Notes: a model not told the origin generated them from the letters alone. A stretch of 64,000 nucleotides of DNA from a virus (IMGVR_UViG_3300037067_011569:26362-90361), one strand, 5' to 3'; counted from the first letter of the stretch, positions 1 to 64,000 are shown. Numbers and translations are program-made.

Positions 1-157
1 TCCCTGAAGATCCGAATATAGTATCCAATGTTGCTTTTATCACTTCCTTCATCTTCAACTGATCTCTCACTGAGAGAGGATAAATTAAAATGTTCCTCAG
101 ATTTCGGATACCAATTTCAAGTTCCTTAATCTGCGGATTAAGTTTGGGCTCCGGCAT
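1..157 (-). CDS. Partial ORF downstream of tail tube gene, possible tail assembly chaperone
   Basis: AAGGAG SD then ATG at 157 (MPEPKLNPQIKELEIG...), open to the window edge; function inferred only from synteny. Confidence 0.4.
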   Translation of the reverse strand, partial: MPEPKLNPQIKELEIGIRNLRNILIYPLSVRDQLKMKEVIKATLDTIFGSSG

Positions 158-173
158 TGCTATTCTCCTTCAA

Positions 174-752
174 TTACACAAAGATGATATGACCAAGCGG
201 TGCGGAATTCCAAACAGCATTACCACCGGTTACATCAGAGCTTGCAATCTTGCTCTCAAATGTAAGAGTTGGTTTTGCATTGTCTTCTTTTGCAAGGTCA
301 ATTTCCATTACAGACGAAACCTGCGCTCTGGGGAAGATAATATACATGTAGTTAGTACCTGCAGGAAATGTATACTGAGCTTCCATTCTTACATACTCAG
401 GAGCAGCAAGGTTGCCAAGAGTTACTTCACCACTTGTGGCAGTATACGTTTCGGTAGTCGGATCGAAGCCACGAGCAAGTGCCATGGTGTAGGGTTTAAT
501 TTCTTCAAACTGACACTCAAGATGTGCCTTCTCTCTGAGGGGATAAATCTGATCTTCTTTGAGAGGGAAACCTGATTCATGTCGCCAATAGTCAACAGAA
601 GACGAAAACTTTGTGGTAGCAAGAGCACCGATACTGTCAGAAGCAGTAGAGCATACACCAGTTTTCGCTATGTTCGTAGCAGAAGCGACAACACGAACCT
701 GGGCAAGACCTAGTGCAAGTGTTCCAGTATCTTTGATGATAGGACCTGACAT
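174..752 (-). CDS. Putative major tail (tube) protein
   Basis: 192 aa, beta-rich, small-residue-rich; follows the neck/terminator-like genes in the late operon. Confidence 0.6.
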   Translation of the reverse strand: MSGPIIKDTGTLALGLAQVRVVASATNIAKTGVCSTASDSIGALATTKFSSSVDYWRHESGFPLKEDQIYPLREKAHLECQFEEIKPYTMALARGFDPTTETYTATSGEVTLGNLAAPEYVRMEAQYTFPAGTNYMYIIFPRAQVSSVMEIDLAKEDNAKPTLTFESKIASSDVTGGNAVWNSAPLGHIIFV

Positions 753-21008: not shown

Positions 21009-22880
21009 TCAATAATTACCATAAACCTGCTTTTCTTGTACGTATATACCAAATATAAAAGAAGTAGTACCTCTTTCTCTGAAATTCTCTATTCCTAAAT
21101 TCCTACCTGAAAACATCGCCCAACCCGTAGCAAACATTGAATCATCTTGTATTCCGCCTTTCTCTTCTTTTTCAGGGGAACCAAACCATCTTTTTTCTAT
21201 ATCGTGATCAAATATTTCCATTTCTTCTATCTGTATATCACCACTCTTTGACCCCAATACACCTGTAGGTGCTGATTTAAACAAACCTTTTGATACAGAG
21301 GAATAAAATTCACCGAATGCTGATCTCTGTCTATCATAAGTAGGGAATATAAGATCAAACGATATTTCTCTTTCTGTTGCCCAAGGTTCTAAGTCCCATA
21401 ATCCCCAACGCTCTCCACCTATTGCATCAATCCCATCATATTCAAGATGATATTGATTCAATAGTTCCTTTATGCCTTCCAAAGAGTGGTTTGTTACATC
21501 TTCTAAATGTAAACGTATATACATATAGTTAGGAACTACACCTTCTCCGTAAAACATGAAGGGATTTGATCTGCTCCCAGGTAATCCTTTTGCCAAACAA
21601 GTAACAATAGTTCTAGCAGAGGATCTGGTTTTCATTGGATCTGCACGATCAACCCCTACCAAAATAACCCAATTTGTATCAAACAAATCACCTAACTTTT
21701 TCAAGTCTTCTATGGTTGCTGCTTGATTTTCATACCCATTATTTAGTTGATAGTACTTAGAAATCCTGCCAAATCTCTTCTCTATGTCATGTAACAATGC
21801 CTCATTGCTTGCTCTTGCATCAATATCTTTAACTTCAAGGTCACTTATCTGCTGCAACATCCTATTTTTTTCTTCAAGCAACTCAATTACCTTATCTTGA
21901 CTGCCAAGATGTCCATCAACAGAGTAAATAGACATTGCCTCTATCATTTCGTCCGAAAAAACACGAACTTTTCCTGCTGACCACAAGTTCTTAAAGAACT
22001 TTTCAAACTCACCAAAAGGAAACTTGACTTTGTAGCCGTCAAGTTCCTCTTGCGTCATGTTTGGATGCCACCAATCGTTTTGATTCCCTTCTTCTGAGTA
22101 CCTATACGAATAAAATATGTTCTCTGTACCAGGTTTTTTCTCTACTTTGTCTCTCCACATAGCATAAAGAGGATGTTGCTTTGGTGAAACGGTAGAATCT
22201 ATTACACCAAGAGCATTTGCAATAGTACGAATAGAACCGTCAAGCTCCACAAAAAACTTTGGATTCTTCATGGAGAACATTTCAGAGAATGTGTAACCCG
22301 TAATATTTGAAACAATCCCTGAAAAACTAGACAATGCTCTTATTGTACTAACTATTCCCCCTCTTTTATCTCTCAAAGTTATGGATTTTTGTTGCACATT
22401 CTTCCAACCAACAATGCCCAATAGTCTTGGTGAGTTCTTCACTATATCAGACATAACATCAAAGTGGACAAACTTAATCTGATCTTTGCTATTTGCACCA
22501 AGAACTATATCTTGTTTAGGCCAACAAAAGAACTTCCATAACTGTATAAGACAAGCAAGGAACGATTTACCTTCACCTCGCATCCAACAAAAAATGAGAA
22601 GTCTGTAAACAAACCTCCCATTCTCCATCTTCAAAGCTTCTCGGACAAGCTTCTTTTGTTCATCCCACATTTGCTTATAACTTCTACCTGTCTTAGGATT
22701 TGGTGTATCAGGCAGGGAATGAACTGGTACCCATCTCGCAATATCAGAGCCTTCAGGGTATATTTTGATACAAACATTTTCTTCACACCAATATATAAAA
22801 CCTTCTGCTCCATCTCTATACTTCTGAAGTTTTGTAAGTTCTGGTTTCTTGATATTTCTTCTTCTCACGATGGGTATCAT
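21009..22880 (-). CDS. terL: Terminase large subunit
   Basis: RGEGKS Walker A, GANSKDQ, DST motif III, VGVD and QDDS nuclease acids. Confidence 0.88.
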   Translation of the reverse strand: MIPIVRRRNIKKPELTKLQKYRDGAEGFIYWCEENVCIKIYPEGSDIARWVPVHSLPDTPNPKTGRSYKQMWDEQKKLVREALKMENGRFVYRLLIFCWMRGEGKSFLACLIQLWKFFCWPKQDIVLGANSKDQIKFVHFDVMSDIVKNSPRLLGIVGWKNVQQKSITLRDKRGGIVSTIRALSSFSGIVSNITGYTFSEMFSMKNPKFFVELDGSIRTIANALGVIDSTVSPKQHPLYAMWRDKVEKKPGTENIFYSYRYSEEGNQNDWWHPNMTQEELDGYKVKFPFGEFEKFFKNLWSAGKVRVFSDEMIEAMSIYSVDGHLGSQDKVIELLEEKNRMLQQISDLEVKDIDARASNEALLHDIEKRFGRISKYYQLNNGYENQAATIEDLKKLGDLFDTNWVILVGVDRADPMKTRSSARTIVTCLAKGLPGSRSNPFMFYGEGVVPNYMYIRLHLEDVTNHSLEGIKELLNQYHLEYDGIDAIGGERWGLWDLEPWATEREISFDLIFPTYDRQRSAFGEFYSSVSKGLFKSAPTGVLGSKSGDIQIEEMEIFDHDIEKRWFGSPEKEEKGGIQDDSMFATGWAMFSGRNLGIENFRERGTTSFIFGIYVQEKQVYGNY

Positions 22881-22882
22881 AA

Positions 22883-23533
22883 TTACTTCCCGTTATTCAA
22901 AGAAGTTTTGAAGTTCATACTAAAAGGATCTCCTACAGGCTCAGTTTCTTTCATTAATTCTGATACATAATCATTATCATCATTGCTTCCACTGCTTCCT
23001 AGATCAAGCAATTCCTTCTCTTTTTTCTTCATCAAATCTGTCAATCCTGCTACTGATTTTGGATCTATGGCTAGTTTCTCAGCAGTGTAGTAAATTGCTT
23101 TCATTGTTTCTCTGATCTCTTTAAATATTGGATGAACGTACTTGCTTTTTCCTACACATATAATATCTTCTAATCCAAGACCTGCTTCAACAAGTTTGAA
23201 CTTACACAATTGAACAAACAAAGGTGTAAGATGCATACCAAAACCATATAGTTGAAATTGATCCCATTCTTCCGCATATGCTTTCAACAATGTATTGGAT
23301 GCAGTCTTAACATATTGCATCTGGACAGTACATTTATGTTCATTGGTTTTGTTTTCTGCTGGACATCTTTCGTAGACAGGACATTCTTCTACAGCACAAA
23401 CTCCCACAATATCCCATGATACTAAAGTTTTTCCTGCAAAGATTCCCCCATGAAATCCAAGTTCCCCAAATTTTCTTTCAAAGCGATCTGGTAATTTACT
23501 TCTTCTGTTTTTGCTAATCATTTCTTTCTCCAT
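22883..23533 (-). CDS. Putative terminase small subunit
   Basis: First gene of the late operon directly upstream of terL; Cys cluster CAVEECPVYERC. Confidence 0.5.
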   Translation of the reverse strand: MEKEMISKNRRSKLPDRFERKFGELGFHGGIFAGKTLVSWDIVGVCAVEECPVYERCPAENKTNEHKCTVQMQYVKTASNTLLKAYAEEWDQFQLYGFGMHLTPLFVQLCKFKLVEAGLGLEDIICVGKSKYVHPIFKEIRETMKAIYYTAEKLAIDPKSVAGLTDLMKKKEKELLDLGSSGSNDDNDYVSELMKETEPVGDPFSMNFKTSLNNGK

Positions 23534-23650
23534 ACTTAAATTTTATCTATGACAGATCCTGACATTTTTCAGCATTGAATTAAAAAATCCAAATGTCAAT
23601 ACAAAAAAGTGAATAAAAAGTAAGAAAAATGTGCTATACATGTAATAACA

Positions 23651-24088
23651 ATGCAATTAACTTATTACATGGGGGATACATTGAAAAAGGAAAGTAAGTT
23701 AATAAAGCATGGGCACACAAGAGGTGGCATAGAATCAATCGAGTACAGAACATATTCAGGGATGAAGAACAAGTGTTGTAATCCAAATTATGTCAGATAC
23801 GATCTTTATGGAGGAAGAGGAATCACTATTTGCGAAGAATGGATGAATTCATTTGAACAATTCCTTATTGATCTAGGACCAATGCCTGATGGTGCAGTAC
23901 TTGGCAGAATTGATGAAAACAAAAACTTTGATCCTGAAAATGCTAGATGGATGAGTAAGGGAGATTATATAAGATCACTTCCTTCTTCTTTTGGTTATAG
24001 AAAACATCCCAGAATGTCTGCAAAGAAAAGAAAGCTCCAAGAGATGCTTGCACTTATTCCAATTAAAAGGAGAAACAATGGTAACTGA
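23651..24088 (+). CDS. HNH-like homing endonuclease homolog, probably degenerate
   Basis: KHG...MKNKCCNP...YGGRGITICEEW...F..F..DLG...LGRIDENKNFDPENARW. Confidence 0.7.
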   Translation: MQLTYYMGDTLKKESKLIKHGHTRGGIESIEYRTYSGMKNKCCNPNYVRYDLYGGRGITICEEWMNSFEQFLIDLGPMPDGAVLGRIDENKNFDPENARWMSKGDYIRSLPSSFGYRKHPRMSAKKRKLQEMLALIPIKRRNNGN

Positions 24089-24308
24089 AGAAGAAGTACT
24101 GAAGAAGATAGAAGAACTTGAGGTAGTAAAAAAGATATACGAAAAAGAAAGAGCCAATGCAGACATAGAAAGGTACTTTGATTTTTACAACACAAGACTT
24201 TCTATAATAGAGGAACACATAACCATGTTGAATTGGTTTATTGGTAAAGTAAGTAGTTTTGAACTCCATTGGGAAAACAAAGAATGGTTAACTTTACAAA
24301 GGATGTAG
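24078..24308 (+). CDS. Hypothetical protein
   Basis: AGGAG SD then ATG 24078 (MVTEEEVLKK). Confidence 0.55.
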   Translation: MVTEEEVLKKIEELEVVKKIYEKERANADIERYFDFYNTRLSIIEEHITMLNWFIGKVSSFELHWENKEWLTLQRM

Positions 24309-24309
24309 A

Positions 24310-24510
24310 ATGAGAAAAAGAAAATTTTCTTCATATCTACCTAATGTCTGTGGAATATGTAATAAAAGAATAACCTTTGACAACCAAAGAACATACGTTA
24401 CAGGTGAATCAGGATCAAGAGATTACTTTGCACATGTAGATTGTATCAGAAAAGAAGAATCCATAGCAGGAAACTATAAGCCTTTAACTCACAACACAGA
24501 AAGAGAGTAA
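24310..24510 (+). CDS. Small Cys/His (LIM/Zn-like) protein
   Basis: CGIC...AHVDC. Confidence 0.5.
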   Translation: MRKRKFSSYLPNVCGICNKRITFDNQRTYVTGESGSRDYFAHVDCIRKEESIAGNYKPLTHNTERE

Positions 24511-24514
24511 AGAT

Positions 24515-24859
24515 ATGCCTACTAGAAACATTCTTTCTTACGGAACACATCCCCCACCAAAGATTGATTACGAAGGTCAATGGTTTCTCAGAGCTATAAA
24601 ACATGAAGCTAAAAGACTTGAAAAGAAATACAACCATAAACCTAAATACATTCTTATGGATCAAACCACTTATCACCACATAAGAATGTACCTTCTTTCT
24701 ATCAACCTGGAACATGAAACCCATAGATTCTACCCAGACCAATTATGGGACATGAAAATAGTTATCTATCCGATAAAAGACAGAACCATACTCAAGTTAG
24801 TAAGAACACCTGTACAGGAAGTGTGCTACCCAAATGATAACACTAAGGAGTACATATGA
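24515..24859 (+). CDS. Hypothetical protein
   Basis: GAG SD; coupled to the next ORF. Confidence 0.5.
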   Translation: MPTRNILSYGTHPPPKIDYEGQWFLRAIKHEAKRLEKKYNHKPKYILMDQTTYHHIRMYLLSINLEHETHRFYPDQLWDMKIVIYPIKDRTILKLVRTPVQEVCYPNDNTKEYI

Positions 24860-25128
24860 CTTTCACCACCTTCATTATTTGTCCCAGCAATGATATTTAT
24901 AACCTGTACCTAAAGTCATTAAACATTAAAACCAAAGAAGAGAAACAAAGTTACCAAAGACTTACAGAGAAAGATCAATTAAATGGTTATGGTAATTTCA
25001 ATGTAATTGTCATAGAATCAAATCACCAATACTTTACTTTTGAGAAAACAGTTAGGATATTAAAATACGTAAACTACCTTCAATCTTTAAAAGCTATCTC
25101 ACCAATAAAAAGAATCACCAAGTTTTAG
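24856..25128 (+). CDS. Hypothetical protein
   Basis: AAGGAG SD; ATGA overlap. Confidence 0.5.
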   Translation: MTFTTFIICPSNDIYNLYLKSLNIKTKEEKQSYQRLTEKDQLNGYGNFNVIVIESNHQYFTFEKTVRILKYVNYLQSLKAISPIKRITKF

Positions 25129-25132
25129 TATC

Positions 25133-25196
25133 TGTTTTATCTGGAGCTTGTAGGGATTTAATAAAAGATTAGTTCCTTACAGTTCCAGATAAAACA
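25133..25196 (+). terminator. Long hairpin closing the small plus-strand cluster
   Basis: TGTTTTATCTGGA / TCCAGATAAAACA 13-bp perfect arms plus an imperfect inner stem, 4 nt after the stop. Confidence 0.5.
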
Positions 25197-27073
25197 ATAA
25201 CAAGGTTTCTATTCAGCAATGATAACAATTAATTCCCTTCCTCTTTTAACAATCATTATCTTGGTTCTTATTCAATATATATACCTTATAATTCCCTTCT
25301 AAATAAATCAATCCCAAAACACAAAATGATGTTTTAGACTACTCTAACTAAGACTTTTACACACTAAAATCATCACTGGAACTAACAGGAATTAATTGCA
25401 ATAAAGCTTTAATAAGAACCAAATAAGTTTGGTTCTTATCTTTTCTATTCAAATACTTATTCAGTAAAGTTCCTTAGTTTTTATATAATTATTGGCACTA
25501 AAAAATAAAAACAGTAAAAAATCAGGACATAATAAACATCACTGTAGAGTCTACTTTTAGACTACTCTGATTAAACAAAGATAAGATAAATAAATCATAG
25601 CATCCCTGTATCAGGGATTAAGTTTAAATCAAATGGAAGTTCTAACTGTAGTAAAAATACTATTTTCAAAAATAAAAAGTCCCAAAATAAAAAGAAGGAA
25701 AACATAGTAAATAGAAAAGGGAGGGGGTAGGTTGGTAGTAGATAAAATAAAAGATTCAGTAAGAAAAAGAGTAGTAAGAATATAAAGCAGAGTTGTTCCC
25801 CTTGTTGGTAAGTAAAGTTTATTATTGTTCATTTTATTGGGAGTAGTTAGAAGAAAGTATATGCATAAATGGGAGGAGTTAGTTTGATTGTTATTTTGCC
25901 GGGAATAATTATGTAATTAAAATTGGTTTTATATGTAGTAAGGAAAAGTATTTTATGTAGTTATTTTATTGGGAATAATTATGATCGGTACCCCCGTGCT
26001 GCTGTCTGTCCATTTCTTTTGAGATAGAACGAGGGGGTATCTCTTTATCTAATCATTTCAATAGTTTAGCTGATATAGCGTCTGATATTGTATGTTATGT
26101 AAACTTGTAATGATATCGCATAGTTAGCTATGCTTATGTTTTCTGATTACAATAAGTGCATATACACTAACTATATAAGCGCAAAGCATGATATCGCTCG
26201 CTTTGCTCGCTTACAGTGCAACGCTTCGCTCGCTTTGCTCGCTGTAGTCGCTTGTCTTACTTCGCTTGTTGTAGTCGATTACAGCAACTTGTCTTTGTCT
26301 TCACTACTCGCTTTATTCACTCTTACAATTCGCTTTGTTTTCAATATTATTTACTCTATCATTATCACAATTGTTAACAATGTTGTTAAAAGTGACAAAA
26401 ATTGTCACTCGGTTACAGTCTACATCACATGATATAGTGTTTCTATCTTGATACAACACTTGACAAAATGTGATAAGTTCTTTTCTGTTTTTAACTAAAT
26501 AACATCACTTTCCTGATATAGTTTAACGATATATAGTAATAATTATGACAATAATCATTCTTCAATCAACGATCGGCTATGCAAACGAAGTAGAGTACAC
26601 TCTCAATTTTGCTCTGCTCAAAATGCTTAAAAACGATGTTAGAATCAATATTCAACTTTTTGCATATAAGCTTTTGAGTGAAGAGATTGTTAACAATGTT
26701 GTTTATGAAAGTAGTCTACTTTTTACTGTTTTCAATATTGTTAAAGATATTGTTAACAATTTGCTACTTACTGTATAAAACTACTTTTTCTTACTATTCT
26801 GATTAGACTGATTTAGTTCTCTTTTCAGTACAGTACAAAAAGTAAGTAGAATAAGAATTTTGCAAAGTACTTTGATTTATCTGTTTTTTCTTACTTTATT
26901 GATTTTACTTGTTTTGCTTTAATCTATACTGAATCTATAGAGTAAGTGCTACAAGACGTTTTAACGCACGCTAGAACACGAATTATGAACTATGCAGTAC
27001 AATGCTTTTCATTATGCTGCATCGTTTCTGCATAAGCTTTTGAGTGCTTTCTTAAGAATGATTCTCTTTTGCA

Positions 27074-27181
27074 CAGTTTTATGTGCAATGCACTGTTTTA
27101 TGTGCAATTTCTTGATTCTTTAGTTATCTCAATAAGTTAAGTATGTTTTCGAGTAAAAAATTGCACATGTTTATGTGCAAT
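27074..27181. repeat. TTATGTGCAAT repeats (direct x3, one inverted copy)
   Basis: Copies ending at 27089, 27108 and 27181; ATTGCACAT at 27160-27168 forms a palindrome with the third copy. Confidence 0.8.
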
Positions 27182-27982
27182 GACGAATAATTCTTCTATT
27201 CTGAACTAGTAAAAATGAACTTATTTTTACGAGTAAAAATAATGCTTTATCTTCTTTTTTGTTTCTAAAAGCGGGTATAGCATAAAATTTGCATTCTCTT
27301 TTGTTCGTGCTGACATATAGTCAGAGACTCTGAAAGTAAAAGCTCATGAGAAATAGAGTGAAGAGACTTTGAACGAAGTCTCAACTTTCAGAGAAAGCGA
27401 ATAACTGCTAAATTCTTTCTCGTTTGACTGTAGAGTGACTACAGACAAGTTGAGTAGCAGTGAAGAGCAACAGTGAACGCATTGCGTTTTTCGTGTGCTG
27501 ACTAGTGAAGAGAAAGCACAAGCGCAACTATGTAAAACGTGTGAGTAGACTAAACACGTTGCGTAAATCAGATTCAAAGACTGTTGTAGTTATGCGAAAG
27601 ACAAGAGAATTTAGCTTATCACTTTCGAAGTAGCATGCTGAATCTAAGCATTGCGAAATTGACAATTTAATCTGATTAACAAAAAGCAAATAGCTTGTTC
27701 TTGTGCTATTGCTATGCGAGTTAAAGCATAGATTGCACAAAGCGAATAGAAAGCTAGTGCTTAGTCTTTTATTGCTGCTATGCAGATATGTCATTATTAC
27801 AGACTATAGGGTAAGAACTATAGATAATGATTAAACGTCTTTACTCTGCTATTCGCATAGATAAGATAATAAATCGAATCTAAAGCATAAAAGACTGATT
27901 AAAATACATAACAAGAGCATTTATACTTTATGCTTTTTGCTAATCAGATTTTCTCTTTTCTCTTTTCTCTTGACTCGTAACA

Positions 27983-28016
27983 AAAAGAGATAGTAGCAAT
28001 TGCTACTATCTCTTTT
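27983..28016. promoter_or_regulatory. Perfect 34-bp palindrome
   Basis: AAAAGAGATAGTAGCAA|TTGCTACTATCTCTTTT; bidirectional terminator or operator. Confidence 0.75.
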
Positions 28017-28049
28017 CAATATGCAGAGTAAGAAAGTAGAGCAAATATC

Positions 28050-28232
28050 ATGTTAAAAGACAGAATATTAAATGCTACAAGAGATTTTCTTAATGCAAAG
28101 AATTCTAGTAGACTACTTATCAGCAATTTTGAAAATGAAATTGCTGTATGTAAGAATTTTAATGAATACAAAGAAAACAAAGAACTAAAAGAACTTGAAT
28201 CACTTATTAATAAGTTCAAGTCAATTCTTTAA
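28050..28232 (+). CDS. Small protein with no Gly/Pro/Trp
   Basis: 60 aa; purine-rich leader without GG. Confidence 0.55.
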   Translation: MLKDRILNATRDFLNAKNSSRLLISNFENEIAVCKNFNEYKENKELKELESLINKFKSIL

Positions 28233-28305
28233 TCTTACATACTCTGCATGTTGATAAGAGATAGATTGCAATGACTTCTATCAGTCTTTTAAGACTAGAA
28301 AGAGA

Positions 28306-28527
28306 GTGAAGAATTTGATTATTCGAGTATCTGATACTTTCAAGTCTAATCTTAGAAATAGCATAGATAGACTTGAAAATCGTAGCAAAGTAGAACTTGA
28401 GAAAGATTTTTTTGACAAGTTCACTTATGCACAAGATAGTTGTGTTGCATGTAATTCTGATTTAAAAGACTTTTCTAGCTTTTATTGTCATGAATGCGAG
28501 AAAGTGATTGCTAAACTGAAGAGATAA
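28306..28527 (+). CDS. Small Zn-ribbon protein with no Gly/Pro/Trp
   Basis: GTG start; CVAC...CHEC. Confidence 0.6.
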   Translation: MKNLIIRVSDTFKSNLRNSIDRLENRSKVELEKDFFDKFTYAQDSCVACNSDLKDFSSFYCHECEKVIAKLKR

Positions 28528-28568
28528 GTGCTTTTAACTTCTAACGTCAAAAGAAAGAGAGAAAAATC

Positions 28569-29030
28569 ATGAAAACGAGAACTGTAGTTCTGAGAAAGAA
28601 AAACAATGTCGTTTCTACTGTCAATGCAATTGACAGTGATGCACTTGCAATATTTGAAGACAAAAAAGCCTTCATTGCAATGAAGGCTTTGAAAAGTGCA
28701 ACTGATTTACTTGAAGAGAGGCGTGCAACACACTATGCGAACAAGTACGAGATTGCACGTGAAGTTGTGAAGAGTGTAGTGAAGAGCAACAAAAGAGCAA
28801 AGTCAGAAAAACATGCGTGCGTTAGTTATATTGAATCACTGATCGAACAAGCACGCTATACACACAAAGAGATACTTGCTAGTGCATGCGTAATGTTTTC
28901 TGATTTAGCACGAATCACGATTGCAACGTATCTTTCAGACTCGAAAAACCCATCTGAAAAATACGGATTCAGACGACATAAGTTCTCAAGACTTGCGAAA
29001 ACTGACAGCAACAAAGTTATGCATTATTAG
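28569..29030 (+). CDS. DSKNP-domain protein, paralog 1 (putative DNA-binding)
   Basis: C-terminal domain aligns with 31199-31900 and 50021-50671; GG-less leader AAGAAAGAGAGAAAAATC. Confidence 0.85.
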   Translation: MKTRTVVLRKKNNVVSTVNAIDSDALAIFEDKKAFIAMKALKSATDLLEERRATHYANKYEIAREVVKSVVKSNKRAKSEKHACVSYIESLIEQARYTHKEILASACVMFSDLARITIATYLSDSKNPSEKYGFRRHKFSRLAKTDSNKVMHY

Positions 29031-29037
29031 CAGCTAG

Positions 29038-29075
29038 TGCAGTCAGCTAGAGCATTCGTGTTCTGACTGACTGCA
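29038..29075 (+). terminator. 17-bp hairpin with UUCG loop after paralog 1
   Basis: TGCAGTCAGCTAGAGCA-TTCG-TGTTCTGACTGACTGCA. Confidence 0.6.
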
Positions 29076-31198
29076 TTATGATGCATGTAATGTATTTTGA
29101 GAAAAGAGAACAAAAGCTAATAATATCAGTGATTTAGCTTGTCATTGACATTGTAGAGCAATGGTAGACTCTTTTTGCACTTTTTGGGGAAGAATCTGCA
29201 TTGCAGAACTATGGACAAATCACTGAAACGATTAGCTATATACAGAATTGTCAGCTATTTTGGAGATTAGTGCTGCATACAGAATTTCTGGGTGTTTCTG
29301 AGATAAATTGGAACATACAGCAAATTGGGGTATTTTTGGAGTTAATTTAATTTCAAGAGAGAAGGAGAAAAACATGGTACTTTATTTTAATGTGCAATGT
29401 GTAGAGTGTAATTTGTGGATGAAAGAAAGTAAAGAAAGTAATCTTTCGCAGGTGGCGAGGTACACCTGCACTAAATGTGGTAAAGTTGTAGAAGTATCTT
29501 TGGATATAGATGCAGATTAGCAAAATGTGGAGTGTTGTGTTCTTTGGATACAACATTTCACTTGTGCTAGTGTGCTTTGGAGTTAATCTACTGACAAGAG
29601 AGAAGGAGAAAATTATGAAATTTAAGGTAAAAGTGTTGTTCGAGAAAAAATGGATGTTTGTTTCTGGAACTAAAGAAGAATTGGAAATTTTCTTCGACAT
29701 ATTCCAGATTGAAAGGTTTGCTCTCTGCTAATTGCGGAGGTGTATCATGAAAAGTTGGTGCCAACATCATGGAAACGAACTTCATGTATACTGCAAACTT
29801 AGCTATTTTCTGGGGAAAAAGCTTTCAAGGAAAATAGCTAAGTTTTGGGGGAAAACTTTTCTTTACAGGAATTTCATTTATTAGTCGGAGGATTAGAAGG
29901 ACGTATGAAATATCAAATTTGTAGATTGAATGTCTGGAAAGCTATAATCCAGACATTCTGTATACAAGTCTGATAGTAGGATGAAGTGATTTTGATCTAA
30001 ACTTAAAACAAGAGAGAAGAGAGAAAAAATGGGAAGTTTCGTAATTAATCACGGGGTAGAATTTGATGTGGATGAAAATTTTGTGGAACTCTTTTCAAGA
30101 AGAGAAGATGGAAGAATCATTCTGCAAATTCGGGAACTGGAACAATTAGTAAAAATGGCAAAAGCAATGAATCAGGAAGAATATGTGTTATTTGAGGAGG
30201 ATGAAAAAGAAAGTCAATTTTGTACGATGGAAAACGGTGTTCTCTGTCACGGTTGCGGGGAATGTGAGAAATAACTATTGAACAATGGTGAAAGGTGTTA
30301 TTTGAGGAAAATGACATCTTTCTTGGTTGTTTGGTAGAAAACAATTAAACAAGAGAGGAGAGAGAAATGGTTGAATTAAAAGTAGAAGTTTTAACATTGT
30401 CCAAAAAAGTGGCGGAGTACATTCCAATTCTTCATCTCGGAATGAAAGAAGAAGATTTGGCATGGTGGGACAATGCAGAAGGTTTAGGAGTTGTTTTCAA
30501 TGCAAAAGGATTGTCTTTTGCATATGGAAATTCAGAAGCTATTCTTCTGAAAAAAGAAGGCAAGTATGCTTGGACTGTTTTTAGAAGTAACCGAGGATTG
30601 GACTCAATTATTCTGAAATAGTAGATAGGTGAGAATCAGTATGATTTAAAGGATTATACTGATTCTCTTGTATCTACAAAAAGTAGGAATAAACAAAAAC
30701 AAGAGAGGAGAGAGAAAAAATGGTTGAAATCTCAAAAGAAAATGAAAGAGGTGGATTACGTCTTTATCGTAATGTTGGTGACAGAAAAAAAGGGATGAGG
30801 TGGGCAATTAAACGAGGATACAATTACTTTGTTGGATTTAAAGATTGCAATCACACACATCCTGCTGGACTATCTTACGGAAAAGCTGATTGGGTAGCAG
30901 AAGGTAAAATTTACGAAAAAGACGTTCTGGTTAACAGAATAATCCACTAGGAGAAAAACAATGGAAACATACTATGCAGTACATTGGACTCATGGTGTAG
31001 CAATGTTGGTAGGATTCGGATTGGGGGCAGCAGTTTTTACTGCCATGTATGCAAATCTGATGTTTAAGGTGAAAAGAACTTTGGAGAGAAAACAACAGTA
31101 GATTAGCAAAACGTCAAGGATTAGGAGAAATTCTAATTTTTGACTTGTGCTAGTGTACTAATGGAAGTTAATTCTAAACAAGAGAAAAGGAGAAAAAA

Positions 31199-31900
31199 AT
31201 GGAAAATGAAGAGAGAATTACTATGGCTGTGGATCTTCTGAATCAAGGTGTGGCAGAGGATGAAATTGTAAAAAGGCTTAGGTTTGCTCACAAAGTCAAA
31301 GTCAAAGAAGCTTCTGCAATTCTTCTCCAGGCGATGGAAAGAACTAGGACTGCAACTAAACAAGTGACAGGAGATCCTGAACCAACAAAAGAAGAAAGCA
31401 CAGAAATTATTGCCCATACTGAAAACTCAAATACTTCTGAGGAGAAAGTGGAAGAGTTGAGTGAGGTAGAAAAAGCAAAACAATGGGCAGGTGAGGGAAA
31501 TGACATGCCATGCTCAGTGTACGGTGAGCAAGACTTGTCAGACCCTGGATGTGATGCTTGCAAACGTGACTGTCCAGTAACCTTTGCTTTCTGTTCCGTG
31601 TTGTCTAACAAGCCGAAAACAGTGAAGAAAGTAGCTTCGACAACAGGGGATAAAACGTCGAGAAAAAGAGTCAAAGGTGCTGGGTATGAGAAGGTCAAGT
31701 ACATAGAAGGCTTGATCACTGAAGGGACACATACCCAGAAGGAGATTGTTGCTCTTGCGATGGAACAATATCCTGAAGTTAAGAGAATCACTATTACTAC
31801 CTACATTAGTGATTCTAAGAACCCATCTGAGAAATATGGGTATGCAAGGCATGGATTCAGTTCACTTGCAAAGGTGACTGATGGGAAACTTCATTACTAG
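31199..31900 (+). CDS. DSKNP-domain protein, paralog 2
   Basis: Helical N-domain, Cys cluster (CSVY...CDACKRDC...FC), C-terminal EGTHTQKEI...SDSKNPSEKYG domain. Confidence 0.85.
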   Translation: MENEERITMAVDLLNQGVAEDEIVKRLRFAHKVKVKEASAILLQAMERTRTATKQVTGDPEPTKEESTEIIAHTENSNTSEEKVEELSEVEKAKQWAGEGNDMPCSVYGEQDLSDPGCDACKRDCPVTFAFCSVLSNKPKTVKKVASTTGDKTSRKRVKGAGYEKVKYIEGLITEGTHTQKEIVALAMEQYPEVKRITITTYISDSKNPSEKYGYARHGFSSLAKVTDGKLHY

Positions 31901-32073
31901 GAGGAAGTGATGGATATAACTAGAAAATCACTTACCGAAGTTGACATGCTATTTGGAGAAGGAAAGATTACAAGAAAAGAAGCGGAAGAATATGTTGCGA
32001 TGTGGAATGCAGTGGCACATTTCACTGTTGCAAAGGTTGAATATAATTACATCTCCAATAGGTTGAATGATTA

Positions 32074-48870: not shown

Positions 48871-49257
48871 ATGATAACAGTTACCAGAAAGTTTGAAGTG
48901 TGTATTGCACATTGGTTGAAAGATCATCCTGGTAAGTGCAAAGACTTACATGGACACAATTTCCAGGTAGAGGTTACAGTAACAGGAAACTTGAATAAGA
49001 ATGGAATGATTGTTGACTTCTCTGAATTGAAAGGTATTGTACAAAATGTTCTTGATGAAATAGATCATAAGTGCCTTAACACAAGATTCCCAATGATGAA
49101 TGATCAGCCCACCGCTGAAAAAGTTGTGGATTGGCTTGCATGTGCACTGATACAAAAACTTTTACCATTGAATATTTCTCTAGTACTTGTCAGGTTGTAT
49201 GAGACAAGCAATTGCTTTGTTACTTGGGTCAGGGAATACTGGGGGAAATCAGAATGA
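48871..49257 (+). CDS. queD: 6-carboxy-tetrahydropterin synthase
   Basis: AHWL...CKDLHGHNF...DFSELK...DHKCLN...PTAE...YET. Confidence 0.93.
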   Translation: MITVTRKFEVCIAHWLKDHPGKCKDLHGHNFQVEVTVTGNLNKNGMIVDFSELKGIVQNVLDEIDHKCLNTRFPMMNDQPTAEKVVDWLACALIQKLLPLNISLVLVRLYETSNCFVTWVREYWGKSE

Positions 49258-49910
49258 AAACTTTGAATGTTAATTCAATATACACTTCCATAGATGGTGA
49301 GGTGAGTGTATTCGGACAAGGAAGAATTAGTACATTTGTACGTCTGGCGCAGTGCAATTTAAAGTGCCAATGGTGCGATACTACATATGCTCAACATAAA
49401 AATTCGGGCATAGATATTACTGTGGAAGAGATAGTAAAAGAAGTGGTGGCGAGAAATGTTCACAAAGTAACTATTACAGGAGGGGAACCATTATTACAAG
49501 ATAATGTGTTCGAACTAACAAAGCAATTGTACCAAGAATGTGTGGATGTAACAATTGAAACAAATGGAACAATAGAGCCTTTTGGATATGAAGTAAGTTC
49601 ATACATTGTAGATTTTAAATTGCCGTCATCAGGAATGCATGAACAAATGAACCCTGATGCATTCACAAAATTAAGGGTATGTGATTTTATCAAGTTTGTT
49701 ATAGATGACATAACAGACTATGAGATTGCAGTAAAAACGGCAAAAGGTTTTAGGGATTTAGCATTGATGGCACAGTTTGCATTCTCCCCTGTGTTTAGGG
49801 ACAATAATTATTGCATAAGTCCACAGGAATTGATGGAACGGCTTAGGAAAGACAGGTTAGGTAATTCTTATATTAATGTGCAATTACATAAACTTCTCAA
49901 CCTTAAGTAA
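49254..49910 (+). CDS. queE: 7-carboxy-7-deazaguanine synthase (radical SAM)
   Basis: Start reassigned to 49254; SIDGE, CNLKCQWCDT, TGGEPL, ETNG, VQLHK. Confidence 0.93.
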   Translation: MKTLNVNSIYTSIDGEVSVFGQGRISTFVRLAQCNLKCQWCDTTYAQHKNSGIDITVEEIVKEVVARNVHKVTITGGEPLLQDNVFELTKQLYQECVDVTIETNGTIEPFGYEVSSYIVDFKLPSSGMHEQMNPDAFTKLRVCDFIKFVIDDITDYEIAVKTAKGFRDLALMAQFAFSPVFRDNNYCISPQELMERLRKDRLGNSYINVQLHKLLNLK

Positions 49911-50020
49911 AAAAGTGTAACTGCCACTAGAAAATTGAAAAATTTTCTCGGCAATGTGCTATAGTAAAAATGAAAGCAGAAAACACAAACAAAACAACCT
50001 AACAGAAAGGGACAAAGTGT

Positions 50021-50671
50021 ATGATCTCTCTTGACCAAATCGACAGCAAAGAATTGAAAGTGGCAGTAACCCAGATTAATGAAACCGCGCTTGTCGAAAA
50101 GATGCGTACAGTTGGTGTGTCGAAAGCCGATCAGATTAAGAAATTTACCGAAGCTTTTGATACTTTGCAGCAAACAAATCTTGCTGTATTGCAGGAGAAG
50201 TGTAAAGATGCAATCCTGTTTTACAATAAGATTTACGCTGATGAAGTTGAAGGTGGTGGGACCACTGAAGAAACAAAAGAAGAGCCTGTAGTAGAAGAGA
50301 AGAAAGAAGAGAAACCTGCTAAGGAAAAGAAAGAAAAGAAAGAGAAAGTTGAAAAGCCTGCAAAAGAACCTAAGTCCGTGAAAGAGAAAGTCGAAAAAGT
50401 AAAGGAAGAAAGAGTTAGTAGAAAGGGACAGACACCTGATCAGATCACAGAAACTGCGGGTAAGCGTTATGAGCTTATGAGTAAACTCGTGGGTGAAGGG
50501 AAGTACACAAAGAAAGAGATTGTGGAGCTTGTTAGAAAAGAATTCCCTGCAATATCTTCTATCACTATTGTCACCAATCTCACTGACAGCAAGAACCCGA
50601 AGTATAATAAACTTTCGAAGCTTGCCTCTGAAGTAGAGAAAGACGGAAAGAAGATTTTCGTTTTCGCTTAA
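50021..50671 (+). CDS. DSKNP-domain protein, paralog 3, inside the que cluster
   Basis: KE-rich linker then EGKYTKKEI...TDSKNPKY; own extended -10 element upstream. Confidence 0.8.
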   Translation: MISLDQIDSKELKVAVTQINETALVEKMRTVGVSKADQIKKFTEAFDTLQQTNLAVLQEKCKDAILFYNKIYADEVEGGGTTEETKEEPVVEEKKEEKPAKEKKEKKEKVEKPAKEPKSVKEKVEKVKEERVSRKGQTPDQITETAGKRYELMSKLVGEGKYTKKEIVELVRKEFPAISSITIVTNLTDSKNPKYNKLSKLASEVEKDGKKIFVFA

Positions 50672-50687
50672 TCCCAATGCATTAAAA

Positions 50688-50723
50688 ATTGTAGATAGTG
50701 GCGATATCGCCACTATCTACAAT
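50688..50723. promoter_or_regulatory. Perfect 36-bp palindrome
   Basis: ATTGTAGATAGTGGCGAT|ATCGCCACTATCTACAAT. Confidence 0.8.
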
Positions 50724-50734
50724 AAGGAGTAATC

Positions 50735-51937
50735 ATGTGTAGTATCTGCGGGGGAACCAAATGGGACTACATAGCAGAACATATATGGGAAGAATCAAAA
50801 GATAGAGGAAGAGACGATTCTGGAATTAAGAAGTTGCCAAATGGATCTTGGATTGGTAATCATAGAGCAACACCTACAACAGAGATTGAAAAGCCGACAG
50901 AAAGGCAACCAGTAGGCTATGATCCTTATATAGTTTTTAATGGCATGATTGCTAATGACGATGCACTTGGAGCAAGACCCGGCGAAGCTGATACTTCTGT
51001 TTTGCCAAGAGTTTTAGATTTTTCTTCTTTGGAAGAATTTCATTATAGTCTAAAACAAATAATGGGCTCCTACGCAATAGGTGCAATGTTTAAAGATGGT
51101 GAGATTTGGCTTGCTTGTAATTATAAACCTATTTGGATTCTTGAATATCCAAAGAATTTTTATTTCTCTTCTCTTCGTCAGCATTTTCCAATAGAAGTTA
51201 GAAGATTAGCCTATCGAATGAACCCTTACTCAGTAAGAATCCTTGAAGATTTCAGATCATCAATTAAAATAGAAAGAAAACAGTTTGATTCTGCCCTAGT
51301 TATTTGCTCTTCTGGGCTAGATTCAACTTCTGTTGCTTCGTATGTTGCACAAAAACATTCCAAAGCTACTCTTCTTCACTTTGATTACAACTGTAAAGCA
51401 GGATCTAAAGAAAAGAGCAGTATTGTAAACATAGCGGAGTACCTGGGATGTGATTACAAAATACTAACTATCCCCCCTGTTTTATTTGGTGATTCTTCCC
51501 CTATAATGAACAACGAACTAAAGATATCTGAGGGAAAATCAGGGGTGGAATATGCACATGAATGGGTGCCAGCTAGAAACTTGATTATGTTATCAATGGC
51601 TGTAGGTTACGCTGAAGCATACAATTACGGACATATCTATCTTGGAACAAACTTGGAAGAATCAGGTGCATATCCTGATAATGAAGAACAATTTATTCTT
51701 GATTTCAAAGGTTTGCTGTGGGGAGCAGTACAAGAAGGAGTTAAGATTCAAGTACATACACCACTTGGCGGACTTATGAAACATGAAATAGTTAAGTTCG
51801 GGTTAAAGTACAATGCACCTTTTCATCTTACTTGGTCATGCTACGAAGGAGGAGATAAACATTGCGGAAAGTGTGGTCCATGCTTTATGAGGAAAACTGC
51901 ATTTGAAAGAAACGGAATGGTAGACCCAGTATTTTAA
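50735..51937 (+). CDS. queC: Glutamine amidotransferase-QueC fusion (Gat-QueC)
   Basis: N-terminal MCSICG Ntn Cys, RGRD, FNG; SSGLDS; VPARNL; YPD; TWSCY...HCGKCGPC. Confidence 0.93.
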   Translation: MCSICGGTKWDYIAEHIWEESKDRGRDDSGIKKLPNGSWIGNHRATPTTEIEKPTERQPVGYDPYIVFNGMIANDDALGARPGEADTSVLPRVLDFSSLEEFHYSLKQIMGSYAIGAMFKDGEIWLACNYKPIWILEYPKNFYFSSLRQHFPIEVRRLAYRMNPYSVRILEDFRSSIKIERKQFDSALVICSSGLDSTSVASYVAQKHSKATLLHFDYNCKAGSKEKSSIVNIAEYLGCDYKILTIPPVLFGDSSPIMNNELKISEGKSGVEYAHEWVPARNLIMLSMAVGYAEAYNYGHIYLGTNLEESGAYPDNEEQFILDFKGLLWGAVQEGVKIQVHTPLGGLMKHEIVKFGLKYNAPFHLTWSCYEGGDKHCGKCGPCFMRKTAFERNGMVDPVF

Positions 51938-51946
51938 GGAGTTTCA

Positions 51947-52513
51947 GTGAGAACACGAAATATAAGAAAGTTCCTATCTGAAGACCTGGGTCTTGATCTT
52001 ACTGACCCAAACTTGAAAGATACACCAAATAGAATATATAAAATGTTTTCAGAGGAGTTATTGTGTAACTCTGATTGTGAGTTTCCTGGATTTACAACAT
52101 TTCCTAACACAAAAAAATATGATCAGATAGTTGGCTTGGAGCTTATAGAGTTTGTCTCTGTATGTTCTCACCATTTTATTCCTTTCTATGGAACTGCTTG
52201 GTTCTACTATATTCCTAGATATGAATTGGTAGGAGCAAGTAAACCTGCACGTTGCATTCTTCATTATGCAAAAAGACCACAACTCCAAGAAACTTTGTGC
52301 CATGATGTTCTAAACAAATTTATGGAATTAGTTCGTCCGATAGGTGCAATGATCTATTTGAGTGGTAAGCATGGTTGCATGTCACATAGGGGAGTGAAAC
52401 AACCAAATATGCAAATGTCCACAAGTGCGGTAGCTGGTGCATTTAGAACAGAAAAAGAAATGGAATCAAAAGCATTACAGATGATTCAAATATCTCTCCT
52501 GCACAACAAATAG
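51947..52513 (+). CDS. folE: GTP cyclohydrolase I
   Basis: DTPNR, SVCSHHF, GASK, RPQLQE, HGCMSHRG. Confidence 0.93.
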   Translation: MRTRNIRKFLSEDLGLDLTDPNLKDTPNRIYKMFSEELLCNSDCEFPGFTTFPNTKKYDQIVGLELIEFVSVCSHHFIPFYGTAWFYYIPRYELVGASKPARCILHYAKRPQLQETLCHDVLNKFMELVRPIGAMIYLSGKHGCMSHRGVKQPNMQMSTSAVAGAFRTEKEMESKALQMIQISLLHNK

Positions 52514-52526
52514 AAAAGGAATTATA

Positions 52527-53057
52527 ATGACAGAGGATTTAAAACCCAATACTTTTGGCTGCAATATATCATTTGAAAAAGTCCCAAATACTCAATATAA
52601 TCAACCATATACGAATATATTGGAATGTTTTCCAAACGAGTTTCCAGATAGACCCTATGCAATCAAGATTGATTACGAAGATTTTTCTTTTATACAACCT
52701 AGCACTAATTTACATAACCTAGCAGTGATTGAAATAAGTTATGTTCCACAAAAGCTTTGCTTAGAAACTGAATCATTATCAAGTTATTTATTTGCATATA
52801 AAGATCATGAAGACTATTTGGAAACTATTGTTAACACAATTTATCAAGATATTTGCAACAGAATTGATCCTTTGCACTTGCAAGTAAAAGCAGAACTTGA
52901 TGAAAGAGAAGGAATAGGACTATCAATAGTTGTGGACAGTGATTATGTGAATGCAATGAATAATCTAATAAGGAATCAACAAAAAGAAAACATAGAAGAT
53001 GATAAGCCCATGGCAAATGCTGAGTTTCTTGATAAGTTACTTAACGGGAAGGAATAA
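52527..53057 (+). CDS. QueF-fold protein with degenerate active site
   Basis: Ungapped match to the QueF pattern (LE.FPN...DR.Y...ISY.P...E..SL..YL), but the catalytic Cys and Asp are replaced. Confidence 0.8.
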   Translation: MTEDLKPNTFGCNISFEKVPNTQYNQPYTNILECFPNEFPDRPYAIKIDYEDFSFIQPSTNLHNLAVIEISYVPQKLCLETESLSSYLFAYKDHEDYLETIVNTIYQDICNRIDPLHLQVKAELDEREGIGLSIVVDSDYVNAMNNLIRNQQKENIEDDKPMANAEFLDKLLNGKE

Positions 53058-53322
53058 TGATGCCATTCTATATCATGGAACAAGTCAAATTAGATATAGT
53101 ATCAAATCATGAGATAGAAAGAAGAAATATTACTTGGGGTGATATTATGTATATAGTTTTCTTTGGTGTATTATTTCTTGCTATTGAATTTGCAATAAGC
53201 TTTTACGATTGGTTGCAAGAAAAAGCAACGGAGTAAACTATGCCATTCATCTTTGGGTTTATACTCGGGAGCATTTTTGGTATTGTTTTGGTGTGTTGTT
53301 GTGTAATTTCAAGGTGGAAACA

Positions 53323-54195
53323 ATGAAAGTAATACTTGATAGTGGTGCTTTCAGTGCCTGGATGAAACAAACAGAGATAGATATAGAGGCTTACGCCAAT
53401 TTCTGTTTGGCCAATCTTGATCACATAGATTACATTGTTAATCTTGATGTTATTCCAGGTAAGTGGGGAGAGAAAAAACTAACACAAGAACAAGTTATCG
53501 CTTCTGCAAAGAAAGGATGGGAAAATTATCGTTACTTAGTAAACAAGGGACTTCCAAAAGAAAAGATAATTCATGTATTCCATCAAGATGAACCTTTTTC
53601 TGTGTTAGAAAGAATGGTATATGAATTTGATTATATTGGATTAGCACCCTCAAAAGATAGAACAACACAAGAGAAAATTCAGTTCCTTGATGTTTGCATG
53701 AATTATGTTTGTCACTCGGATGGAATGCCAAAGATCAAGTTTCATGGATTTGGTGTAACATCTATGCCTATTTTGTTTAGATTTCCTTGGTTTAGTTGTG
53801 ACAGTACCTCCTGGGTTAAGTTCGGGAAGTATGGGATAGTTCTATTCCCAAAAAGAAAATACGGAAAGTATCGTTATGACTTATCGCCATATACAATCAA
53901 AGTTTCTTCACGCTCACCTGCTAAAGCAAAAGCAGACAAGCACATAGATACCATGTCACCTACAGAGAATGATTGGTTTGTATCTATGATTGAAGAAAAA
54001 GGATTCAAGCTTGGACAAAGCTTCTTTGAAACTAATGAGAAAGGGAAACAAGTTGAAATAGTAAAAGAAGAAGGATTATCTAATAGTGGTGTGCAAAGAG
54101 ATAGATGGAATCTTTTGTATTATCTTAATATAGAACAAAGTGTTCCAAAGTGGCCTTGGGCCTTCAAATTTGAAGATAAACACACATTATTCTAA
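53323..54195 (+). CDS. dpdA: DpdA/TGT-like DNA base-exchange enzyme
   Basis: Start reassigned to 53323; ILDSGAFSAW, NLDVIPG, HVFH, HGFG, SCDSTSW; in a preQ0 cluster. Confidence 0.82.
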   Translation: MKVILDSGAFSAWMKQTEIDIEAYANFCLANLDHIDYIVNLDVIPGKWGEKKLTQEQVIASAKKGWENYRYLVNKGLPKEKIIHVFHQDEPFSVLERMVYEFDYIGLAPSKDRTTQEKIQFLDVCMNYVCHSDGMPKIKFHGFGVTSMPILFRFPWFSCDSTSWVKFGKYGIVLFPKRKYGKYRYDLSPYTIKVSSRSPAKAKADKHIDTMSPTENDWFVSMIEEKGFKLGQSFFETNEKGKQVEIVKEEGLSNSGVQRDRWNLLYYLNIEQSVPKWPWAFKFEDKHTLF

Positions 54196-63909: not shown

Positions 63910-64000
63910 ATGGATGAATCTATTGAAGCAAAGTCAGTTTCTTTTGTTTCACCGACTACAGTTAGTTGTAAAGCAAATGATTGTAAGTTTCATGAAAATG

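Follow-up and report, generated by a model that had tools for sequence, protein, structure and literature searches.

The DNA analyzed here is a stretch of 64,000 nt, hereafter the window, which corresponds to bases 26362-90361 of the 90,361-bp viral record IMGVR_UViG_3300037067_011569. The phage genome is labeled G000. Late genes, which encode the capsid, an S49 protease, the large terminase (TerL), and a glycan cluster, are found on the minus strand as far as about 23.5 kb into the window. The plus strand from about 29.2 kb carries early and replication genes, including those for a helicase and a DnaB-like protein. Between these two regions lies a zone of 3,128 nt from which the dinucleotides GG and CC are nearly absent, and which includes three small open reading frames (ORFs), designated ORF 1 to ORF 3. 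The features of the locus are listed in Table 1.

The zone contains 10 GG and 4 CC, 14 in total, whereas about 168 are expected from the local base composition. The observed/expected ratio is 0.11 for GG and 0.05 for CC, while GG/CC is normal genome-wide (1.07-1.16). Gaps of 859, 698, and 535 nt contain neither dinucleotide, in contrast to a genome-wide mean spacing of 13.6 nt; the longest GG/CC gap elsewhere in the window is 97 nt. This zone is the sole GG/CC-depleted region in the 90,361-bp genome. Its G+C content is barely lower than that of the surroundings. The GC and CG steps reach 1.74 and 0.88 of expectation in the zone, against 0.98 and 0.45 elsewhere.

The depletion is reflected in the proteins. 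The original prediction counted 1 Gly, 1 Pro, and no Trp among the 286 amino acids (aa) of the three ORFs, and a recount gave the same numbers. At the genome frequencies of these residues (G 6.4%, P 3.8%, W 1.6%), 33.8 would be expected (binomial P=2e-13). Part of this shortage is automatic: GGN, CCN, and TGG codons cannot occur in an ORF whose DNA is GG/CC-free. Synonymous-codon resampling, in which the proteins are fixed and codons are drawn by genome usage, is a test independent of this automatic loss. It predicted 4.3, 6.6, and 17.3 GG/CC for ORFs 1 to 3, where 0, 0, and 6 are seen (P=0.010, 0.0006, and 0.0010); in total, 6 are seen against about 28 expected. The avoidance of GG/CC thus extends to codon junctions and synonymous sites.

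The ribosome-binding sites are affected as well. The leader of ORF 3 is AAAGAAAGAGAGAAAAATC-ATG, while six of the seven early genes just outside the zone have ACAAGAGAG..GGAG..AAAA-ATG. For the three zone genes, pairing with the anti-Shine-Dalgarno sequence is predicted at -2.1, -4.7, and -5.2 kcal/mol, against about -9 kcal/mol for the early leaders outside. Both the leader sequence and the weaker predicted pairing agree with the earlier claim of a GG-less leader at 28569. Among 88 genes outside the zone, 83% have GG at positions -20 to -4. An exception is the early gene at 30029, which has a GG-less leader although it lies outside the zone.

Table 1. Positions of the GG/CC-free zone, its genes, and associated features. 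Positions refer to the window (G000) unless a relative is named.
Feature	Genome	Position	Strand	Remarks
Large terminase (TerL)	G000	21009-22880	minus	
Three ATTTTATTGGGAATAATTATG-like repeat copies	G000	25831-25983	+	On the terminase side, just beyond the zone
Boundary element GGTACCCCC..(about 36 nt)..GAGATAGAaCGAGGGGG	G000	25987-26040	+	Zone begins directly after it
GG/CC-free zone	G000	26036-29163	both	Three small genes, preceded by about 2 kb that lacks convincing genes
Conserved non-coding block	G000	27621-27762	+	77% identity with G001; includes TTGACA and a CTATGC/GCATAG hairpin
Second conserved non-coding block	G000	27897-27975	+	Ends with (TTTTCTC)x3-TTGA, identical in G001
Perfect 34-bp palindrome	G000	27983-28016		Directly upstream of ORF 1; operator- or terminator-like
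Zone ORF 1	G000	28050-28232	+	60 aa; helical/coiled-coil-like; no Gly, Pro, or Trp; least certain gene
Zone ORF 2	G000	28306-28527	+	73 aa; CxxC..CxxC (zinc-ribbon-like); no Gly, Pro, or Trp
Zone ORF 3	G000	28569-29030	+	153 aa; long helix and C-terminal winged-helix domain ("DSKNP" family); 1 Gly, 1 Pro
Hairpin with 11-bp stem, within ORF 3	G000	28665-28690		Contains two surviving GG/CC (GCC and GGC, mutually paired)
Shoulder	G000	29164-31200	+	Sense-strand GG normal; sense-strand CC low (10 against 24 expected)
Out-of-zone paralog 1	G000	31199-31900	+	233 aa; 53% identity to ORF 3 over 81 aa, E=8e-23
7-deazaguanine module (QueD, QueE, Gat-QueC, FolE, QueF-like, DpdA)	G000	48871-54195	+	que/folE genes by Pfam
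Out-of-zone paralog 2	G000	50021-50671	+	216 aa; 43% identity to ORF 3 over 53 aa, E=1e-6; between queE and gat-queC
DpdA	G000	53209-54195	+	phrog_887, E=8e-45
Iteron array	L025 (G004)	1-190		
Iteron array	G008	30010-30220		
Iteron array	G003	31650-32006		
Iteron array	L010	5457-5665		

The comparison of ORF 3 with its two paralogs outside the zone shows which residues are lost. The substitutions listed in the original prediction (EG(T/K) to QAR, (Y/F)P to FS, DGK to SNK, EGL to ESL, and HGF to HKF) are all visible in the alignment, and the only Pro and the only Gly of ORF 3 are located, as it stated, in the motif NPSEKYG. In the C-terminal 80 residues, the Gly and Pro of the paralogs sit exactly at Ser, Gln-Ala, Ser, Lys, and Ser-Asn of the zone copy. 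The N-terminal part of paralog 2 is also conserved beside que genes in the relative G002 and beside DnaB in the relative G003, which seems to have no que cluster.

At least 372 proteins with the C-terminal domain of ORF 3 were found by a domain profile search. Among the best 150, the median Gly+Pro+Trp content is 9.4%, and therefore homologs outside such zones are not equally poor in these residues. Six members have two or fewer of them. The three best-conserved Gly/Pro columns are occupied by G, P, and P at 83-84% in ordinary members. In the same three columns, the six zone-type members have, respectively, Ala (six of six); Ser, Asn, Ser, Ser, Lys, or a gap; and a single Pro. Across the family, replacement of the conserved Gly/Pro columns is thus limited to zone copies, and the homolog comparison proposed with the original prediction comes out in its favor. 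The relation also holds in the reverse direction. The DNA of three new members without Gly and Pro (P0007, P0148, and P0014), chosen by protein composition alone, was examined, and all three are encoded in GG/CC-free DNA. Over the first 2,487 nt, the contig of one Gly/Pro-free member has just 3 GG/CC, and the density beyond is normal.

The AlphaFold model of ORF 3 (mean predicted local distance difference test score, pLDDT, 87) consists of a long helix followed by helices at residues 79-94, 99-109, and 115-125 and a wing. With an exhaustive structural aligner, the top 50 matches are all winged-helix domains, at middling Z scores of 5.5-7.8 and a root-mean-square deviation of 2-3 Å over 54-68 residues. 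Foldseek against PDB gave no match at E<=0.001, and a word-indexed protein search gave only the self-match. The Pfam family PF24706 (DUF7669-like) does not match ORF 3; it scores 14.2 bits with paralog 1 and 24.3 bits with the family member P0021, where the cut-off is 23. Judged from the model, ORF 3 looks like a regulator with its own operators, given the winged helix, the 34-bp palindrome, and the repeats in the zone.

For the three zone ORFs, Pfam and PHROG scans returned no family match; no dedicated Acr/Aca library was searched. No homolog of ORF 1 was found. ORF 2 may start at the TTG at 28315. A 31-nt inverted repeat (28234-28264 with 28006-28036, 87% complementary) flanks both sides of ORF 1.

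The closest relative, found by TerL search, is G001, a genome of 91 kb whose TerL is 78% identical. The zone of G001, at the equivalent map position, extends over about 3.4 kb and includes 2,630 nt entirely free of GG/CC. The zone DNA of the two phages can be aligned in three short patches only. The G001 ortholog of ORF 3 is 43% identical (E=3e-27), and that of ORF 2 is 43% identical over 51 aa (E=1e-7); neither has any Gly, Pro, or Trp. Both the Pro and the Gly of the NPSEKYG motif are lost in G001, while its out-of-zone paralog retains Gly and Pro. The absence of these residues from orthologs in barely alignable zone DNA indicates that the zone genes are real and that the ban is kept under sequence turnover.

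Past the zone, GG on the sense strand returns to normal immediately, while CC on the sense strand of the adjoining early genes stays low, at 0.41 of expectation in G000 and at 0.28 in G001 (first 1 kb after its zone), against about 1.2 in later genes. No dinucleotide other than CC differs in this shoulder. It was seen only in G000 and G001 and is absent from G002, G006, G007, and G009.

An alignment-based terminase scan found 80 loci, and the survey of dinucleotides covered 83 related loci with G+C contents of 33-47%. A GG/CC gap at log10P below -6, the criterion for a zone, is present in 26 of the 83, and no other dinucleotide class recurs as a gap. The zones of this clade, one per genome, are 0.3-3.4 kb long and are located upstream of TerL in every case, 1-6 kb away. 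Nine further relatives were assembled from pieces (five of them are fragments) and have zero or one zone each. The shorter zones contain a single ORF of 109-180 aa, in which Gly, Pro, and Trp are absent or nearly so and the C-terminus is helix-turn-helix-like (HTH-like). The ORF is found in either orientation, and iterons are adjacent. GG-less leaders are found on zone genes throughout the clade. A relative in a metagenome-assembled genome labeled Paludibacteraceae, from buffalo colon, has no zone; the binning of phage contigs is unreliable.

The iteron arrays differ among the relatives: a 23-nt unit in eight copies, GTGAATATGATTCATTTA in five copies, GAGTCA/TGACTC arrays, and ATTCGTGTTAC repeats were observed. 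Such differences suggest a fast-evolving pairing of protein and binding site. Arrays of about 200 nt, as in G008 and G003, could be GG-free trivially.

The pooled zones of eight genomes contain 31 GG/CC, whereas 974 are expected. The next most depleted word without GG or CC is GATC, which is about threefold down. The palindromes TGCA, ACGT, GCGC, and CGCG are enriched. General avoidance of restriction sites was considered and rejected: the zones are enriched in 4-mer palindromes without GG/CC, and no strong avoidance of palindromes is seen genome-wide.

TerL, the zone DNA, and ORF 3 have no match in the phage collection searched for cultured relatives. A zone of the same kind is present in an unrelated cultured phage. 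In Rhizobium phage RHEph10 (JX483881; 115 kb, 60% G+C), positions 98833-99982 form a zone of about 1.15 kb; its gaps measure 159, 424, and 549 nt, where the mean spacing is 7.3. The best ORF there encodes 204 aa with 1 Gly, no Pro, and no Trp, on the strand opposite to the annotated gp148; gp148 is probably annotated on the wrong strand. The 204-aa protein shows no homology to the winged-helix family. The terminase of RHEph10 is also unrelated, with no match to the TerL in the window, and its gene is 11 kb from the zone.

The terminase-side edge of the zone has a conserved arrangement. Two or three TGGGAAAAAATTATGG-like repeats are followed by GGTACCCCC, about 36 nt, and then GAGATAGAnCGAGGGGG. 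In G000, this element (25831-26040) is non-coding and lies between the small-terminase gene and the zone. A conserved element ..GATAGAnCGAGGGGG.. is found at this edge in G000, G001, G006, G009, and G010, with a variant form in G002, and TGGGAAAAAATTATGG repeats equivalent to the ATTTTATTGGGAATAATTATG-like ones are found in G001, G006, G007, and G010. The boundary motif is at, or within 750 nt of, the terminase-side edge in at least nine related loci. The boundary element with its repeats resembles a cos/pac region with repeats bound by the small terminase. If the edge element is such a packaging site, then by analogy with phage lambda the packaging of the DNA would finish with the zone, and its ejection into the cell would begin there. 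A promoter scan gave no signal above shuffled controls, and an Rfam search of 23000-32000 gave no credible match.

The G000 record is classified in IMG/VR as complete with terminal repeats. The two record ends (genome 1-220 and 90161-90361; about 63800-64000 of the window) share a tandem repeat of about 94 nt, through which they overlap. What is recorded as a "terminal repeat" is therefore an overlap of the assembly within a repeat array and is not evidence for physical ends. Elsewhere in the window, a 1,280-aa ORF (56855-60697) fuses a uracil-DNA glycosylase-like domain to a family A DNA polymerase (PolA) with a LAGLIDADG insert, which is probably an intein.

The ban on GG/CC is unique within the genome, is costly to proteins and leaders, and is conserved under turnover. 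Selection at the nucleotide level for the absence of GG/CC is well supported because of the gains of GC and CG steps, the transversion from Gly to Ala, the sharp and positionally conserved edges, and the 2,630 nt without GG/CC in G001. The original prediction inferred that selection on the DNA reshapes the proteins. This inference is supported by the avoidance at synonymous sites and codon junctions, the zone of G001, the conserved columns of the family, and the GC/CG gains. The prediction also proposed that the ORFs may be the first-expressed, possibly anti-defense, proteins; the one protein conserved in the zones, a winged-helix DNA binder with iterons and palindromes nearby, has the look of a regulator.

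For the agent of this selection, we tentatively favor a blind spot at the level of the DNA, covering an early regulatory cassette that probably enters first; we give this somewhat less than an even chance. A cassette kept free of GG/CC on both strands would offer no target to a DNA-acting factor that needs this dinucleotide. Such a factor would read double-stranded DNA, because the loss affects GG as well as CC on the same strand and extends over about 2 kb without genes. Its specificity would be constant across the phage clade, which argues against host-specific restriction sites or protospacer adjacent motifs (PAMs). The reader may be a nuclease, a PAM-dependent effector, or another DNA enzyme, either of the host or of a competitor. 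The cassette comprises the winged-helix protein and its likely binding sites (iterons and palindromes), and two more small genes in the window phage. It is placed between the packaging genes and the early genes and, in the subgroup with the conserved edge, directly after the packaging-site-like element. The ban acts on the DNA, and the proteins bear the cost, with Gly (GGN), Pro (CCN), and Trp (TGG) dropped. The AGG, CGG, GCC, ACC, and TCC codons and the G/G and C/C codon junctions are avoided too, and AAAGAGAG takes the place of the AGGAG ribosome-binding site.

Several points weigh against such a blind spot. To our knowledge, no enzyme or defense system has the bare GG/CC step as its sole requirement. 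The sites recognized in restriction are longer, and the PAMs of CRISPR systems vary by host, while the ban is identical in relatives whose hosts probably differ. With its length of 0.7-3.4 kb, a blind spot would protect the rest of the genome only if entry or expression were stepwise. The winged-helix gene faces the supposed end in about half of the relatives examined in full, and the boundary motif is missing or displaced in several zone-bearing loci. Contig starts, taken as a proxy for cos ends, are heterogeneous, many being within tandem repeats, and indicate no clear end. In G008, G003, L030, and L055, there is either nothing or just an array of iterons about 200 nt long. It is possible, if doubtful, that an undescribed activity reading the bare GG/CC step occurs in distant bacterial groups or their phages. 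Two unrelated lineages, the Rhizobium RHEph10 group and the gut/rumen-type clade, would then each have evolved a regulatory cassette that escapes this activity, and would pay for it with proteins that lack Gly, Pro, and Trp.

An expression-level cause is unlikely. The zone could escape a GG/CC-reading RNase or regulator, such as a RegB-like enzyme cutting at GGAG, or could avoid Shine-Dalgarno-like sites or stable G:C stacks. The symmetry between strands would then be only apparent, resulting from transcription of both strands or from flips in gene orientation over time. The clade-wide GG-less leaders, set against the AGGAG of neighboring early genes, the occurrence of the winged-helix gene in both orientations, and the strand-specific CC shoulder of G000 and G001 are in line with this explanation. 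Identical specificity in unrelated hosts is likewise consistent with universal machinery, the ribosome or RNA polymerase for example. However, GG and CC are both gone from one strand, even across the 2 kb without convincing genes, and we know of no RNase with such specificity. Evasion of Rho was rejected, because its YC preference does not fit a zone in which TC (UC in RNA) is not depleted. VIPR, an RNA-guided silencing system of phages with GGY/NN guides, was also rejected as a cause, because its targets require no GG or PAM.

It is quite unlikely that the zone is a blind spot for the phage's own DNA modification. The phage encodes FolE, QueD, QueE, Gat-QueC, a QueF-like protein, and DpdA, and its DNA therefore probably carries a 7-deazaguanine. 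If DpdA inserted this base at G in a GG context, a cassette avoiding GG/CC would stay unmodified, which could serve the host RNA polymerase or site reading by the winged-helix protein. Known DpdA enzymes target motifs of 2-3 nt, such as GA and GGC (PMC7544227, PMC10484667). DpdA is present in each examined complete or near-complete relative with a real zone (G001, G002, G006, G007, and G011), and a paralog of the zone protein is located within the que operon. GG on the template strand is rare for 1-2 kb into the early genes of G000 and G001, but this shoulder is absent in G002, G006, G007, and G009. Zones do not track DpdA more widely. By tblastn, RHEph10 has no DpdA or que genes despite its zone, so DpdA cannot be the general reader. 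Conversely, G008 has the full pathway and only a 210-nt iteron array, the DpdA-positive phage RHEph04 has no zone in the 50 kb of 53 kb examined, and CAjan, whose motifs are known, has no zone free of GA/TC or GG/CC. Furthermore, GGCC and CCGG are moderately under-represented genome-wide in G006-G008, and GG-containing sites thus seem not to be fully shielded. In G007, the DpdA match (G007:C1:27237-27803) contains two in-frame TGA codons, which could mean a broken gene or recoded TGA.

Only a slight probability is given to packaging fidelity, by which the terminase would cut at or near the G-run element when the head is nearly full and the last kilobases would be kept free of look-alike sites. 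No host factor is required, the trait follows the TerL-defined clade, and in the subgroup the zone adjoins the conserved G-run element with its upstream repeats, beside the terminase genes. Against this, the zone of G007 has no G-run, the motif is absent at several zone-bearing loci, and G5 and C5 runs occur commonly in other parts of the genome. The zone length varies from 0.2 to 3.4 kb among genomes of similar size, and the RHEph10 zone is distant from an unrelated terminase. The constant presence of the same regulator gene in the zone would also be left unexplained.

A passive local mutational bias without selection, such as repeated deamination at CC, is very improbable: the AG/CT steps are slightly raised in the zone, but the largest gains are in GC and CG rather than in the products of CC deamination, and G+C is maintained. 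Conserved Gly was replaced by Ala through a G-to-C transversion instead of by Asp, Glu, Ser, or Arg. The zone has sharp edges, equally positioned in relatives with unalignable zone DNA, and G001 has no GG/CC at all across 2,630 nt.

The preferred reading, a blind spot on the entering DNA, resembles known systems in part. In phage T5, EcoRI sites are absent from the first-step-transfer (pre-early) DNA and present in the rest of the genome. The likeness consists of a first-entering terminal segment free of a target carried elsewhere and of small early proteins, one of which is a DNA binder. Here, in contrast, a bare dinucleotide is banned on both strands and three amino acids are lost, and a terminal repeat, the terminal position, and stepwise entry can only be proposed by analogy. 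In Autographiviridae, the early-injected region is reported to decide the sensitivity to type I restriction, and the position of a site relative to entry order matters rather than the genome-wide number (PMC12455610). That case concerns a defined type I site and one host, whereas the ban here is clade-wide.

In phages, restriction sites and CRISPR PAMs are mildly depleted genome-wide (PMC4246573). Such selection acts likewise against short words read by defense systems, and GG/CC is the core of NGG and CC PAMs; here, however, GG/CC is normal genome-wide and nearly absent in one cassette. The acr-aca anti-defense operons (PMC13551039) have variable small ORFs upstream of a conserved HTH regulator and a palindromic operator, and the architecture of G000 and G001 resembles this, as a resemblance only. 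The anti-defense leading regions of conjugative plasmids (PMC11541004, PMC13478746) are the DNA expressed first on entry, an order that the zone may share by analogy. No dinucleotide ban has been described for either kind of locus. Among the DpdA systems, the motifs are GA and GGC in CAjan and GA in iggy (PMC7544227, PMC10484667, PMC10516641). The window phage likewise has DpdA and the preQ0 pathway, and the enzyme family reads motifs of 2-3 nt; the difference is that CAjan has no motif-free cassette, while RHEph10 has the cassette without DpdA. No description of a localized dinucleotide ban was found in the literature.

The avoidance of motifs in phages is known as a mild genome-wide bias on sites of 4-8 bases. 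Here, a two-base word is nearly eliminated from one cassette, at the cost of three amino acids and the normal ribosome-binding site. The ban persists through deep sequence turnover in many relatives and is also found in an unrelated cultured phage. The zone proteins provide natural cases of functional proteins that lack Gly, Pro, and Trp. The pattern would be a testable sign of a GG/CC reader and a marker of the DNA that the phage can least afford to have touched. Should the reader be a defense system or a modification enzyme, its specificity would be readable directly from the sequence.

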